64,000 nt of DNA from positions 1-64,000 of the forward strand of contig JAHPZE010000009.1 in NCBI GenBank assembly GCA_019058365.1, in the 5' to 3' direction. Positions 12,728 through 38,064 of the stretch are shown one piece after another. The translations under genes were made by a program, and so were the position numbers. Under the pieces are notes generated by a model, which was given only the letters and a program-made list of their open reading frames with translations, made no database searches and was not told where the DNA came from. Source of the DNA: Promethearchaeota archaeon (GTDB lineage: Archaea > Asgardarchaeota > Lokiarchaeia > Sigyniarchaeales > SOKP01). Every line of letters starts with the position of its first letter. Within the stretch, counting starts at the first letter, position 1.

Positions 12728-13495
12728 TTGAGTTCTAAGTTAGAAAAAGAAAAAAAAAAAGGTAAAAAAGAAAAAAAGAAGAAGTTAATGGTTCAAGAAA
12801 TAAATGACGATACGGAAGTTCAGGAAATAACAAAAAAAAGTAATATTTTTTCTATGTTAAACAAGCTTGACGATATAGACAAGGCTAAGGGTCAATTGGA
12901 AGAGAATAAATTAAGAAAAGGTATAATCGAAAGTGAACAATTAGATAAAACAGAGAAAATAGAAGCTGAAAAGTTAGATTTTAATACAATCAGAAAAGAA
13001 ATAGAAAAATTAAATGAACTTAAAAATCGCTACTTTACTAAAGGAGAATATGATAAAGCCATTGAAATCTCTGAAAAAATAATTGTTATTGCATTCTCAA
13101 ATAAATTAAAGTCATTAGTAAATGAAGAGAATAAGTTTTTAAAGCTTATGCGAAATAAAAAAATTCAAGCAACTGCCAATACAGAAATTCTTGTAAAAGA
13201 TAAAGTGATAAATGCCATCAAGAAAGAACAAATAGAGAATCTTACTACTAAACAAGAAGAAGATCTAAAATTAGATTTAATAGAAGTTCAAGAAAACCAA
13301 AAATTAAAAGAAGAGAAATTAAAATTTAAAGAAGAAAAAGACAAATTTGAACATGAGAAACTAGAATTTGAAGAAGAAAAAGATAAATTTGAACAAGAGA
13401 AACTAAAATTTGAAGAGGAAAAAGAGGCTTTTAAATGGGAAAAACAAATGTTTGCAGAAGTAAAAAAATTTGAAAGAGACAAAGAGGCTCTTTAG
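12728..13495 (+). CDS. Charged coiled-coil protein with a TPR-like helix pair
   Basis: K/E-rich; YFTKGEYDKAIEISEK; C-terminal heptad repeats. Confidence 0.7.
   Translation: MSSKLEKEKKKGKKEKKKKLMVQEINDDTEVQEITKKSNIFSMLNKLDDIDKAKGQLEENKLRKGIIESEQLDKTEKIEAEKLDFNTIRKEIEKLNELKNRYFTKGEYDKAIEISEKIIVIAFSNKLKSLVNEENKFLKLMRNKKIQATANTEILVKDKVINAIKKEQIENLTTKQEEDLKLDLIEVQENQKLKEEKLKFKEEKDKFEHEKLEFEEEKDKFEQEKLKFEEEKEAFKWEKQMFAEVKKFERDKEAL
13313..13438 (+). repeat. Three imperfect 42-bp tandem repeats (EKLxFxEEKDKFEx)
   Basis: Units start at 13313, 13355 and 13397. Confidence 0.85.
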
Positions 13496-15740: not shown

Positions 15741-17231
15741 ATGGTAAATTTAGCAGATCTAGAACAACCTCATGTTTTCTGGGAATATTTTTTACAAATA
15801 TTAGAAATTCCTAGGTGTAGTCGAAATGAAGAAAAAATAAGAAATTTTATTAAAAAAGAAGCAGAAAATTTTGGGTTTAATTCAAAAATCGATGACATAG
15901 GAAATATTGCTGTAAAGATTCCCGCTATTAATCAAAAACTAAATTGTGTTTTACAGTGCCATATGGATATGGTATGTGAGAAGAATGAGGATGTTATTCA
16001 TGACTTCTCAAAAGATCCTTTAAAACCTAAAATAATCGATATTGAAGGTGAAAAATGGATTACAGCAGAAGGAACTACTTTAGGTGCAGATAACGGTGTA
16101 GGAGTATGCTTTCTCTTAACTCTTATGAAAAAAATTCACAACAACGAGTTAAAGTTCGATACAATAGGTTTAGATTTATTGTTTACTGTTCGTGAAGAAT
16201 ATGATATGGGTGGGGCAAAAAATGTTGATCCGAATCTTGTTCACGGAAATTACCTAATCAATCTTGATTCTGGTCAAAAAGCGATTACAATCGGATGCAC
16301 AGGGGGCATTGGATTTCATACAAGAATAAAAAAAAAATCTATTTTAATAGATCGAGGAAAATTAAAACTCTCCCCCATAAAACTTTCCATTTCTGGATTA
16401 TGTGGTGGACATTCTGGAAGATGCAATGAAGGCCAAGCCCATGCAATTAGTATATTATCTCAAATCCTTTGGAAATTGAATAAAAAGTATAAAATCCATG
16501 TTAATTCTATAAATGGAGGAGGTGCTGCTAACGCAATACCTAGAGAAGCGAACTCAGCTTTTTTTATTAAAGAAGACCAGTTTGAAGAAATCAAATTATA
16601 TTTATTAGAGATTTTCAAAGAAATTAAAAAACTTTTTAACGGAATCGAAATGGATATTGATATTACGATCGACAAAATAAAAGACTTTACGAGTAATGAA
16701 ACTTTCTCAAAAGAAGTTCAAAATAAATTACTCGATCTTTTATATATCTTCCCTAATGGTCCGATTGCATTCCATCCTAAAATAAAAGACTTGATGTTTA
16801 CTTCAACAAATTTAGGTAAAATAAGGACAAAAGAAGATCACATTAAAATTAGATGGCTCCATCGAAGCTTAAGCAGCTATTATAATAATGATATTTATGA
16901 ACAAGTTTTAGAATTATTAAATCTTTCAGGTCTAGAGATGGAACATAAGTACCGTGGAAGTTATCCTCCTTGGGAACCAAATTTTAATTCTAAACTCCTG
17001 AAAATCGCTAAAGAAGCCTATAAAGATGTAAATAATGAAGATGCAGAAATGAGAATTATTCATGGTGGATTAGAAGCTACATTATTAATCGATAAAATCT
17101 CTGGAATTGAAGCAATAGCTTTCGGTGCCAATTCTAAAGGACTTCACTCTCCAGATGAGCGGTTAGAAATTAAATCAGTAGAAACAACTTGGAATTTTCT
17201 CATACATCTACTTAAGAAAATGGATACATAA
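15741..17231 (+). CDS. pepD: Aminoacyl-histidine dipeptidase (M20C)
   Basis: HMDMVCEK, TTLGADNG, GGHSG, IHGGLE and HSPDE. Confidence 0.92.
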   Translation: MVNLADLEQPHVFWEYFLQILEIPRCSRNEEKIRNFIKKEAENFGFNSKIDDIGNIAVKIPAINQKLNCVLQCHMDMVCEKNEDVIHDFSKDPLKPKIIDIEGEKWITAEGTTLGADNGVGVCFLLTLMKKIHNNELKFDTIGLDLLFTVREEYDMGGAKNVDPNLVHGNYLINLDSGQKAITIGCTGGIGFHTRIKKKSILIDRGKLKLSPIKLSISGLCGGHSGRCNEGQAHAISILSQILWKLNKKYKIHVNSINGGGAANAIPREANSAFFIKEDQFEEIKLYLLEIFKEIKKLFNGIEMDIDITIDKIKDFTSNETFSKEVQNKLLDLLYIFPNGPIAFHPKIKDLMFTSTNLGKIRTKEDHIKIRWLHRSLSSYYNNDIYEQVLELLNLSGLEMEHKYRGSYPPWEPNFNSKLLKIAKEAYKDVNNEDAEMRIIHGGLEATLLIDKISGIEAIAFGANSKGLHSPDERLEIKSVETTWNFLIHLLKKMDT

Positions 17232-34983: not shown

Positions 34984-36594
34984 TTGAAATCACAAGATGA
35001 ATTAGGTGTTCCAATCCCAGCAAATAAACCATTAGTAGTAAGGACAATAAAAAAAGTTACAAAGGAACAACGTGAGTATGTACTCAAAAAAACTGAATAT
35101 AGTATGTTTTCTTTTCCAGCAGATTTAACTTTTGTAGATTTTTTGTCTGATTCGGGCTCTGGAACTATGACAGATTATCAATGGGCTGCTTTATTTCATG
35201 GGGATGAGTCTTATGCTCGCAATAAGGGTTATTACGTTCTTTTAGAAGCTGTTCGAGACACATTTGAGCGAGGTGATAATCCAAAAAGATCTATAGATTT
35301 AATTCTTACTAGTGAAACAAATGTAAAAAAACTCATTGATGAGCTTTACATAACTTCATATGAGGGAGGTTTTGCAAATGGAGGTATTCATCAATTAACC
35401 CGTCCTAATGCTTTCATTGTTCCACAAGGACGTTGTGCGGAACATTTACTATTCTCAACAATAGCTCCCCTCTTAAAAGAAAATAAAAATATTACTTATT
35501 ATATCCCAAATAATGGACATTTTGATACTACTGAAGCTAATATAGTAACAAACGGCATCCAAGCTATAAATTTGTTTTCAGCAAATCTTATGGAAGATTT
35601 TCCTTATGATGAAATGGATAAAAGAAATCCCTTTAAAGGTAATATGAATCTTGAAGGACTTGAGAACCTAATTCAAGATAAGGGTGTCGAATCAATTCCA
35701 TTAATTTATGTTACAATTACAAACAATGTAGCAGCTGGTCAACCAGTCTCAATGAAAAATATAAAATCGGTTTATAAAATCGCTAAAAAATATAATCTTC
35801 CTTTTTTCTTTGATGCCTGTCGTTTCAGTGAAAATGCTAATTTTATAAAAGAATTTGAAGAAGGATATAAAAATCACTCAATCCAAAGTATTGTACAAGA
35901 AATGTTTTCTTATGTTGATGGTTTTACTATAAGTTTCAAGAAAGATGGCCTAGCTAACATGGGTGGCGGACTTTTCTTTAGAGATAAAGGTCTTTTTCAT
36001 AAAAAATTTTCCATAAATGGAGATATTGGAATTAGACTGAAAGAAAGACAGATATTAACTTTCGGAAATGATTCATACGGTGGAATGAGTGGTCGAGACA
36101 TAATGGCTTTAGCTGCAGGGCTTTATGAAGTTATAAAACAACCTTACTTAAATGAACGAGAATATCAAGTAAGAGAATTTGCACGAAAGCTCGCAAAGAA
36201 TGGTATTCCTGTCATTCTTCCAGCTGGTGGTCATGCTGTATACATTAATATGGACAAATTTTTTGAGGGAACAGATATAAAAATCGAAGATTTTGGAGGT
36301 GTTGGATTTACTATCGAACTTTTAAAACACTTTGGTATACGAGCTGTTGAATTAGGTCCGTTCGCTTTTGAGTGGGATAAAAAAACACCCGAACAACGAA
36401 AAGGGATTTTGAATTTAGTCCGTTTTGCAATGCCTCGGAATTTATATAATGCTTCGCATATAGATTATACTGTAGCAGCAATTACTGAACTTTACCATAA
36501 TAAAGAAAAAATTCCTAAAGTTAGAATTTCTCGAGGCGCAGATTTACGTCTGAGACATTTTCAAGCAGGACTTCAACCGATTTATAAATCTTAA
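34984..36594 (+). CDS. tnaA: Tryptophanase-type beta-eliminating lyase
   Basis: DFLSDSG, GDESY, QGR, HFDTT, SFKKD (PLP lysine) and LRHF. LRHF is tryptophanase-type, whereas tyrosine phenol-lyase has LRFF. Confidence 0.8.
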   Translation: MKSQDELGVPIPANKPLVVRTIKKVTKEQREYVLKKTEYSMFSFPADLTFVDFLSDSGSGTMTDYQWAALFHGDESYARNKGYYVLLEAVRDTFERGDNPKRSIDLILTSETNVKKLIDELYITSYEGGFANGGIHQLTRPNAFIVPQGRCAEHLLFSTIAPLLKENKNITYYIPNNGHFDTTEANIVTNGIQAINLFSANLMEDFPYDEMDKRNPFKGNMNLEGLENLIQDKGVESIPLIYVTITNNVAAGQPVSMKNIKSVYKIAKKYNLPFFFDACRFSENANFIKEFEEGYKNHSIQSIVQEMFSYVDGFTISFKKDGLANMGGGLFFRDKGLFHKKFSINGDIGIRLKERQILTFGNDSYGGMSGRDIMALAAGLYEVIKQPYLNEREYQVREFARKLAKNGIPVILPAGGHAVYINMDKFFEGTDIKIEDFGGVGFTIELLKHFGIRAVELGPFAFEWDKKTPEQRKGILNLVRFAMPRNLYNASHIDYTVAAITELYHNKEKIPKVRISRGADLRLRHFQAGLQPIYKS

Positions 36595-36659
36595 TATAAT
36601 GTAATCTAAATTAACATTATTCTATATTAATTAAAAAAGTAGAAATTAATTAAAAAAAT

Positions 36660-36959
36660 TTAAATATCTAACATTCGTAATTTCTGCGAAATATCCTTTC
36701 TTCTAAGTATTTTCATAAAGTCATCTTTTCGCTGTTGAAGACGAGTCAAAAAAGTATCCAGTTTATCAAAATTATTAAAGAAAAATTCCCTGCCATCATT
36801 TATAATCTTAACACCTTTTTTATCGTTTTCAATAATTGCATATATTCCTCCTACTCCCTCAGAATGTTTTATAAATACTTTCTCTGCATCAGGAATTTTT
36901 TCATTCCCTTTTTTCGCCCAGAAATTATTTTTCAATAAATATGACCTATACATACTCAT
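36660..36959 (-). CDS. Hypothetical protein (~99 aa)
   Basis: Clean ORF with GAGG upstream. Start is ATG 36959 or GTG 36971. Confidence 0.65.
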   Translation of the reverse strand: MSMYRSYLLKNNFWAKKGNEKIPDAEKVFIKHSEGVGGIYAIIENDKKGVKIINDGREFFFNNFDKLDTFLTRLQQRKDDFMKILRRKDISQKLRMLDI

Positions 36960-37045
36960 TTTTCCACACACAACCTCTTTTTTTTAATTATGATGAGTCA
37001 TTGAGATATGTTTATTAATATACTCGTTATGACCATCGGCATATA

Positions 37046-37149
37046 GTTCCGAGTAATATAAAATTCAAGTCGATTATAACATCGTGTAATATGCAAAGAA
37101 CATATCACCGACATATTATACGACTTTAACTTTATATTCCACAAGAAAC
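37046..37149 (-). ncRNA. Long imperfect RNA hairpin (structured leader or sRNA)
   Basis: About 40 paired positions. Four non-Watson-Crick pairs are G-U on the minus strand only. Confidence 0.6.
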
Positions 37150-37272
37150 ATAGTTACAGAAATCCCTTATAAATCATTAAGTAAAAAGCCCAGAACTATT
37201 TACTAAATTATTTTTACTTGGGGTTATTTAAATAAAATTTCAATTGGAAAATTTCATTAAAATAAAATAAAA

Positions 37273-38064
37273 TTAAGGATATTTTTCATGTAAGCTTTTT
37301 ATAAAATCATCTAATTCCTTTATAGTTTTTTTCTTTGAGTCATAAGCTACTTTCCCACATTCATCTTCCATATCAAAACATGATTTAATATAAGCTTTAT
37401 TCATAATCGTTAACATAGTCTTTGTAAAGAAGATAAATTCTGTCTGATACTTAACAATCTGCTTCGCGAAATTAAGAGTTTCAGTATCAAGGTGATCGAG
37501 TGGAAAAATTCTTGCTGGAAAATTAATGTTCAGTAATTCATTCACACCAAATTTATCTGTAGTAAAAAGGAGATTCTTTGCATAGGTCAACCCTAGTCCT
37601 AATAAGGGTAAAAGAGTCGCTCCAGTCTGAGGAAAAGCTGAAATTGCGAGTTCTGGTAATCTCAAATATAATTCATCAATAGGTCTATCAGCAAAAATCC
37701 TTATATCAGAAGCCATAATCACCATTACTCCAAAACCTATAGCAATGCCTTGAATCTGTGTAATTACTAGTTTTTTCATAAGAACAATAGTCTCATTGAC
37801 CTTTCTACCCCATTCAGTTATTTGTACTACTTTTTCAGGAGAACCTTGTATTTCTTTAAGATCATACCCTGCTGAGAAAAATCTTTGTCCCGTACTCTTA
37901 ATCAAAATACACTTAACGTTCTCATCTCTGTCAGCACTAATTAAACTTTCATATATTAATTTTAACATAGGAATATTGCACGCATTCGCCTTATTTGGTC
38001 TGTTTATTGTAATTGTAGCAATACGCCCTTTTACTTCATATAGAATAAATTCTTGTTCACTCAT
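37273..38064 (-). CDS. Enoyl-CoA hydratase/isomerase family protein
   Basis: ITINRP..ANA, FSAGYDL, AIGFG and LPE. Confidence 0.9.
   Translation of the reverse strand: MSEQEFILYEVKGRIATITINRPNKANACNIPMLKLIYESLISADRDENVKCILIKSTGQRFFSAGYDLKEIQGSPEKVVQITEWGRKVNETIVLMKKLVITQIQGIAIGFGVMVIMASDIRIFADRPIDELYLRLPELAISAFPQTGATLLPLLGLGLTYAKNLLFTTDKFGVNELLNINFPARIFPLDHLDTETLNFAKQIVKYQTEFIFFTKTMLTIMNKAYIKSCFDMEDECGKVAYDSKKKTIKELDDFIKSLHEKYP

Follow-up and report, generated by a model that had tools for sequence, protein, structure and literature searches.

In Escherichia coli, hairpins in the rnc and pnp leaders stabilize the mRNA until they are cleaved by RNase III. Autoregulatory leaders are known in archaea as well, where L7Ae binds to a K-turn in the 5' untranslated region (UTR) of its own mRNA and the ribosomal protein L1 of Methanococcus likewise binds to its own mRNA, and 5'-terminal stabilizer stem-loops, as in E. 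coli ompA and Bacillus subtilis aprE and ermC, block decay that depends on the 5' end. Asgard archaea are the closest prokaryotic relatives of eukaryotes; to our knowledge, almost nothing is known about post-transcriptional control in these organisms, and our searches of the literature returned no account of leader RNAs from Asgard archaea. Here, we describe a previously undescribed, genus-specific structured RNA that is located in the leader of a conserved Lokiarchaeial gene.

The locus lies in a 64,000-nt stretch of DNA (the window) from a Lokiarchaeial (Promethearchaeota, Asgard) metagenome-assembled genome of 4.74 Mb with approximately 30% G+C. The leader serves an open reading frame (ORF) of 99 amino acids (aa) at 36660..36959 of the minus strand, whose start codon is at 36959. 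An enoyl-CoA hydratase gene is located upstream of the leader on the same strand, a beta-eliminating lyase gene lies downstream of the 99-aa ORF in convergent orientation, and PUA/pre-PUA and LigT genes are close to the locus. From 5' to 3', the parts are ordered as TATA box, predicted start site, hairpin 1, linker, hairpin 2, A-rich spacer, GAGG/GU-repeat, and ATG; with the 5' end as predicted, the untranslated leader before the ORF is approximately 185 nt long. The TATA-like box TTTATAA (37167..37173, minus strand), the sequence of which had been read correctly in the initial annotation, is a promoter candidate. It is kept in 50 orthologs with A/T swaps only (TTTATAA, TTTAAAA, and TTTATAT), a pattern to be expected if it is a TATA box and not a helix. 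Because of the usual archaeal TATA-to-start spacing, transcription is predicted to start at 37140..37142 (minus strand), at a G after a U about 25 to 31 nt from the box; this predicted start derives solely from the TATA-like box, which sits in a genome of 70% A+T.

Hairpin 1 (37053..37140, minus strand) is built from a basal helix P1 (37128-38/37055-65, approximately 11 to 13 bp across orthologs), a variable helix P2 (37121-26/37067-72, 5 to 6 bp), P3 (37113-20/37075-82, UAUAAUAUC/GAUGUUAUA), and the nearly invariant P4 (37101-08/37086-93, GUGAUAU/AUAUUAC), which encloses a 7-nt loop (37094-37100, UUCUUUG). The consensus of the apex in orthologs is (A)UGUUCCUUGC; the mid stem is paired in the clade of the window and is an internal loop in most other orthologs. 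A further, outermost helix of 5 bp (37145-49/37046-50, minus strand) probably lies upstream of the predicted start site and is weakly kept in orthologs, at 50 to 94% per pair. Including this helix, the hairpin has 38 pairs; read on the minus strand, 34 are Watson-Crick pairs and 4 are G·U, whereas the plus strand has an A·C mismatch at each of these 4 positions. The initial annotation had described five helices around a 7-nt loop and four such strand-dependent positions, and the pair table agrees with it on all of them. When both strands of 37021-37173 were folded with RNAfold, the minus strand reached -45.6 kcal/mol (z -6.24), a value that none of 200 shuffled sequences attained (-27.4 ± 2.9 kcal/mol), and the plus strand reached -22.8 kcal/mol (z -2.43). 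The 3' arm of hairpin 1 carries a 20-nt block, AUAUUACACGAUGUUAUAAU (37073..37092, minus strand), that is nearly invariant in the ortholog alignments; because its 5' partner segment varies, this block is conserved beyond the needs of pairing.

Hairpin 2 (36992..37037, minus strand; GAUGGUCAU-AA-CGAG ... CUCG-AUGAC-U-CAUC) is likewise conserved, with 90.8% of its cells paired and five pairs changed on both sides (for instance, CGAG/CUCG to CACG/CGUG). The Shine-Dalgarno-like GAGG is combined with a GU repeat, GGUUGUGUGUGG (36964..36977, minus strand); this unit, 5 nt before the ATG, does not vary within the genus. A AGGUGUGUGUG-type block also precedes the start codon in orthologs across the order, including those of other families (loci L055-L068), and may be a protein-binding motif specific to the gene family of the 99-aa protein. 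As a general translation signal or a regulon mark, the GU repeat was rejected, there being 105 GTGTGTG sites genome-wide; those near an ATG are mostly in-frame codons of larger genes, for example eIF5A. Orthologs across the order often show a second GUGUG in the loop of an upstream hairpin (GGGGAU-GUGUG-AUCCC, UAUG-UGUGUGG-CAUA). Neither hairpin includes the ribosome-binding site, for which folding predicts only partial pairing (mean unpaired probability 0.47), and no simple sequestering mechanism is visible.

We gathered and aligned 51 orthologous leaders (alignments A1 and A2). Among congeneric genomes, the intergenic region is alignable from approximately 18 nt past the upstream stop codon to the ATG, at 71 to 92% identity, and the 163-nt two-hairpin core has a mean identity of 82% to the window sequence. 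The adjacent ORF is 88%, 92%, and 62% identical at first, second, and third codon positions, respectively; the comparison of 82% in the leader with 62% at third positions therefore indicates purifying selection nearly as strong as that on the protein. The same long hairpin folds independently in every ortholog when sequences are folded singly. RNAalifold gave no consensus on the MAFFT alignment, and the structure was taken from the per-sequence folds and then refined with a covariance model, R1, which spans the two-hairpin core (36987..37149, minus strand) with 163 positions and 55 pairs. R1 matched all 50 congeneric copies, at 112 to 181 bits, and scored 176 bits on the minus strand of the window versus 25 bits on the reverse reading.

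In the model-guided alignment, standard pairs fill 87.9% of pair cells, versus 28 to 48% when the partners are slid by 1 to 3 columns, and 16 pairs are changed on both sides. Both-side changes occupy 67 cells versus 30 ± 5.5 in shuffles, and the covariation score is 0.158 versus 0.130 (neither value was reached in 500 shuffles), although the close relationship of the 50 sequences means that these statistics overstate independence; at most helix positions there is no variation and hence no information. Because the sequences are close kin and the structure was derived from them, we added an arm test that is independent of the alignment, in which the 5' and 3' segments of a leader were compared with segments swapped between orthologs. 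A leader's own segments pair better in P2, in the mid stem, and in hairpin 2 (0/2000 swaps in each). The compensatory series in P2 comprises GUCG/CGAC, AUCG/CGAU, AUUG/CAAU, GUCU/GGAC, GUCC/GGAC, and GUGCC/GGUC. In the closest relatives, whose proteins are 98 to 100% identical, UUUAUAU replaces the 3' segment ACGAUGU, which is invariant elsewhere, and pairs at all seven positions with a 5' partner that reads AUGUAGG. The orthologous leaders thus combine a conserved structure with compensatory changes in P2, the mid stem, and hairpin 2.

The substitutions also distinguish the strands. At paired positions, G·U outnumbers A·C by 291 to 94, and by about 95:5 in the well-aligned P1; the commonest change is from A to G in the 5' arm opposite a constant U, which would not affect pairing in a minus-strand RNA but would disrupt a plus-strand RNA or a DNA palindrome. 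With fold, pair retention, G·U excess, and the pairing of own over swapped arms all pointing the same way, an RNA structure on the minus strand is very probably under selection. Oligo-T runs are the archaeal termination signal. One of 50 leaders contains a run of at least five T in the interval from the predicted start to the ATG, although shuffling predicts 0.51 such runs per leader; runs of at least five A are found in 40 of 50. The excess of G·U over A·C and the avoidance of T5 runs both argue that the minus strand is transcribed through to the ORF. An intrinsic terminator or attenuator, which would need an oligo-U run after the stem, was rejected on the same T5 count; a motif scan with sigma-70-like and terminator motifs, which is uninformative for archaea, returned no terminator-like sites.

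The element is present in a single copy. BLAST against the 4.74-Mb genome returns the element alone and R1 finds one locus, which rules out the dispersed, MITE-like repeat that the initial annotation had listed as a refutation. Rfam 15 gave no match at gathering thresholds in the whole window; at an E value of ≤10, the interval 36400-37500 yielded four sub-threshold matches, all within the ORF (36727-36945) and none on the hairpin. Two known classes of small RNA were rejected on their signature motifs: for C/D-box RNAs (RUGAUGA plus CUGA), the C box and CUGA are each found in 5 of 50 leaders and neither in the window, and for H/ACA RNAs, an ACA follows hairpin 1 in only 5 of 50 and the consensus is without a large internal pocket. 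R1 detects the RNA in 47 of the 53 genomes of the genus, and all 51 copies directly precede the 99-aa ORF on its coding strand; the six congeneric genomes in which R1 does not detect the RNA likewise yield no ORF, or an ORF that is a fragment or is cut at a contig end. The public contigs bearing the 99-aa gene are ordinary metagenomic DNA. Among the other genera of the family, 11 gave no match to R1 and the sister genus (42 genomes) gave one weak match of 37.5 bits, and no match was obtained at the loci of distant orthologs. The leaders of these distant orthologs are variably structured (z from +1 to -4.5), and across the order they keep a TATA-like box 147 to 268 nt before the ATG. Together with the GU repeat at the ribosome-binding site, this box indicates that the long leader is ancient, although the hairpin family is genus-specific.

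The initial annotation regarded the downstream gene as an orphan ORF. The 99-aa protein has indeed no match among Pfam, NCBIfam, or PDB sequences, and the ESM Atlas gave no lead; its family, however, is order-wide, being encoded in 40 of 41 sampled genomes of the order, usually once, and it has 282 database relatives, all annotated as hypothetical, in records named Promethearchaeota or Lokiarchaeota archaeon. The AlphaFold model (pLDDT 72) consists of a short helix, a four-stranded meander, and a long C-terminal helix rich in Arg and Lys. Foldseek found nothing at an E value of ≤0.001. The best VIA-align hits were the C-terminal domain of the Mediator subunit Med17 (Z 7.6) and frataxin (Z about 6), both within the background of the tool, so that no fold can be assigned, and neither Foldseek nor VIA-align gave a sign of RNA binding in the predicted fold. 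Paralogs that are 47 to 60% identical occur in two genomes (L051-L054; G018 contig 69, G008 contigs 68 and 116). They have short upstream regions without the long leader, and upstream of two of them lie small ORFs that, from the DNA, would encode Cys/His-rich, zinc-finger-like products; the paralogs may therefore reside on mobile elements.

We consider it probable that the element is a genus-specific structured 5' leader that acts in cis as part of the leader of the 99-aa ORF. Hairpin 1 would be the 5'-proximal part of the structured leader on a monocistronic mRNA for the 99-aa Lokiarchaeia-specific protein, and the leader would act post-transcriptionally on the stability, processing, or translation of that mRNA. 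As predicted, hairpin 1 would start a few nucleotides from the 5' end as an imperfect duplex of approximately 38 bp with an invariant apex and 3'-arm block. A duplex near the 5' end, an invariant block and apex, a second hairpin, the lack of a terminator, and a ribosome-binding site free of the hairpins fit a protein-recognized element better than a metabolite sensor, and hairpin 1 would most likely serve as a recognition and stability element for a protein that is either duplex- or sequence-specific. Each particular partner that we can name is, at best, a candidate of low probability.

One such candidate is RNase III, which may process or destabilize the mRNA in the manner of the bacterial rnc and pnp leaders. 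RNase III is rare in archaea; in this genus, the family is found in 50 of 54 genomes and is a core gene, and the archaeal control genomes contain none. An RNase III-domain protein of 243 aa (64 bits) is encoded at G000 contig 46, 143033-143764 (locus L174:1432-2163, plus strand), so that a duplex-specific nuclease is available, and the duplex of about 38 bp exceeds the at least 20 bp that we required of an RNase III-controlled leader. As in the rnc and pnp leaders, a long (>20 bp) imperfect duplex near the mRNA 5' end is found together with an encoded RNase III; unlike those leaders, this one belongs to an Asgard host and precedes the gene of an orphan protein rather than that of a nuclease, and the link to RNase III is an analogy. 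Unlike the usual RNase III substrates, hairpin 1 is invariant in sequence at its apex and in one arm.

A sequence-specific binder, possibly the encoded basic protein itself in an autogenous circuit, is the other candidate. The locus shares with the L7Ae and L1 leaders a structured element with invariant features on the mRNA of a small, basic, highly conserved protein, whereas it has no K-turn and no rRNA mimic, and the encoded protein is without a known RNA-binding fold; binding by this protein would follow those cases by analogy. Like the ompA, aprE, and ermC stem-loops, hairpin 1 begins a few nucleotides from the 5' end, which is here a predicted one, but it is far longer than protection needs and contains invariant blocks.

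The alternative that survives best, although unlikely, is that hairpin 1 is an independent small RNA of 90 to 100 nt, transcribed from the TATA-like box at 37167-37173 and either trans-acting or processed (for example, by RNase III), the ORF then being transcribed by read-through or from a TATA-like run in the 3' arm. The run in question, UUUUAUAUU, is part of that arm and precedes hairpin 2 by approximately 30 nt; the mRNA could start there, and hairpin 1 would then be a separate RNA. Conservation of the 20-nt block opposite a varying 5' partner is what a strand with its own function typically shows, and RNase III is core to the genus. Several observations oppose such a small RNA: no oligo-T terminator follows the hairpin in 49 of 50 orthologs, conservation is unbroken up to the ATG, and the element is never found away from the ORF or in a second copy. 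A conserved complementary target was not found either. A single sense-strand site, within a coding gene (C34:68536-68555), complements the 20-mer at 18 of 20 positions, and shuffled 20-mers give 0.15 such matches per genome; this site was rejected as a trans target, since it carries 6 to 10 mismatches in orthologs and is not conserved in the 24 compared.

Hairpin 1 also resembles pre-miRNA hairpins in being 90 to 100 nt long and imperfect, with G·U pairs and bulges, in having one arm far more conserved than the other, and in co-occurring with RNase III. It differs from these and from guides of the Asgard Argonaute HrAgo1 in lying within a leader, in a genus where PIWI proteins are sporadic (5 of 54 genomes; the genome of the window encodes one, of 757 aa, on contig 30), and in having no conserved target complement that we could find. 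The natural guide sources of the RNA-guided HrAgo1 have been stated to be unknown (PMC11217426). A role as an Argonaute guide precursor is unlikely, given PIWI in 5 of 54 genomes against the hairpin in 47 of 53 and a sole 18/20 complement that is not conserved. In one genome of the genus (G077, contig 19), a second RNase III gene lies approximately 2.6 kb from a PIWI-domain gene (12960-13301, minus strand, and 15893-16714, plus strand), an arrangement that resembles the rnc-Argonaute neighborhood described for HrAgo1 (PMC11217426).

A riboswitch, or another sensor of ligand or temperature whose hairpins rearrange to control expression, is very unlikely. The length and conservation of the leader, and its invariant nucleotides in unpaired and apical positions, would suit such a sensor, and in many orthologs the AUG and Shine-Dalgarno region is predicted to pair with early codons. 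Within 36918-36983 (minus strand), AAUGAGUAUG pairs with CAUAUUUAUU, burying the AUG, and AGAGGUUGU pairs with AUAAUUUCU (codons 11 to 13), both in the predictions for most orthologs. These pairings of the AUG and GAGG were rejected as regulatory structures, however, since they break without compensation in approximately 16 of 50 orthologs and their 3' strands are under coding constraint. The two hairpins are long and unbranched, with no multi-helix junction and no conserved internal pocket, Rfam returned no match to the element at an E value of ≤10, and the downstream protein gives no hint of a metabolite. The initial annotation had called the element a novel cis-regulatory leader, switch, or small RNA, and had proposed that a second stem, TACTCG/CGAGTA (37021-26/37050-55), competes with the base of the long one. 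A selected, previously unannotated minus-strand structure in a long leader is indeed what we find, and the second stem is present in the window; only about 72% of its cells are kept, though, with no compensatory change, and hairpin 2 rather than this stem is the conserved structure in that stretch. Because the stem is not conserved, a switch operating through it is not supported, and no conserved alternative pairing able to act as a switch was found in the 50 orthologs.

It is highly improbable that the function lies at the DNA level, in an operator or promoter palindrome recognized by a transcription factor, with the hairpin as a by-product. TATA-like runs do occur within the arms, and the promoter region is rich in conserved palindromes (CCAATTG, AGTAAA/TTTACT, GAAAC/GTTTC). 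An inverted repeat, AGTAAA/TTTACT, around a T5 run (37180..37204, minus strand) is conserved just upstream of the TATA box and, from its sequence, may be the terminator of the upstream gene or a factor-binding site. A palindrome of the form GAAAY-N3-RTTTC (37145..37157, minus strand) lies between the TATA box and the predicted start; the copy in the window is degenerate (GTAAC TAT GTTTC), the variants in orthologs are GAAAC/GTTTC, GAAAT/ATTTC, and GAAAT/GTTTC, and it is a candidate operator. With two further conserved elements of the minus strand, ACCCCAAG (37217-37225) and TTCCAATTGAA (37240-37250), these make four promoter-region elements that are candidates for an operator, a terminator, and factor-binding sites. 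For the hairpin itself, however, a DNA palindrome should be strand-symmetric, which the ratios of G·U to A·C in P1 (about 95:5) and overall (291:94) are not; a palindrome of approximately 40 bp with compensations in P2 that shift the register is unlike operator half-sites, and the strand-specific avoidance of T5 argues for transcription. Finally, regulation of the main ORF by a 9-codon upstream ORF in the apex and 3' arm (M/V-F-x-x-Y-Y-x-x-L-stop; 37067-37099, minus strand) is extremely unlikely, for although a frame of 9 to 10 codons with an AUG or GUG start occurs in about 38 of 50 orthologs, it shows no synonymous variation and the changes observed are non-synonymous, the short frame is lost in the closest relatives, running on there to 22 to 39 codons even though pairing in the RNA has been compensated, and its start codon, without a Shine-Dalgarno sequence, is buried in the hairpin apex.

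The element is thus a structured leader RNA with good support: its consensus is defined, its covariance model works, and 50 orthologs are available. It has no Rfam family, and it is linked to a protein that is restricted to this lineage and whose leader, unusually long, is ancient in the order. If the structured leader in front of this gene is only a stabilizer or a protein-binding leader, it would be a useful but ordinary addition to the catalogue. A more specific proposal, which we regard as quite unlikely, is that the Lokiarchaeial RNase III naturally acts on the hairpin and that cleavage would control the mRNA and free an RNA of approximately 20 nt from the conserved 3' arm (AUAUUACACGAUGUUAUAAU). 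If true, this would be the first RNase III-dependent, hairpin-based gene control in an Asgard archaeon, and it could be a forerunner, independent of Argonaute, of the hairpin-processing pathways of eukaryotes.
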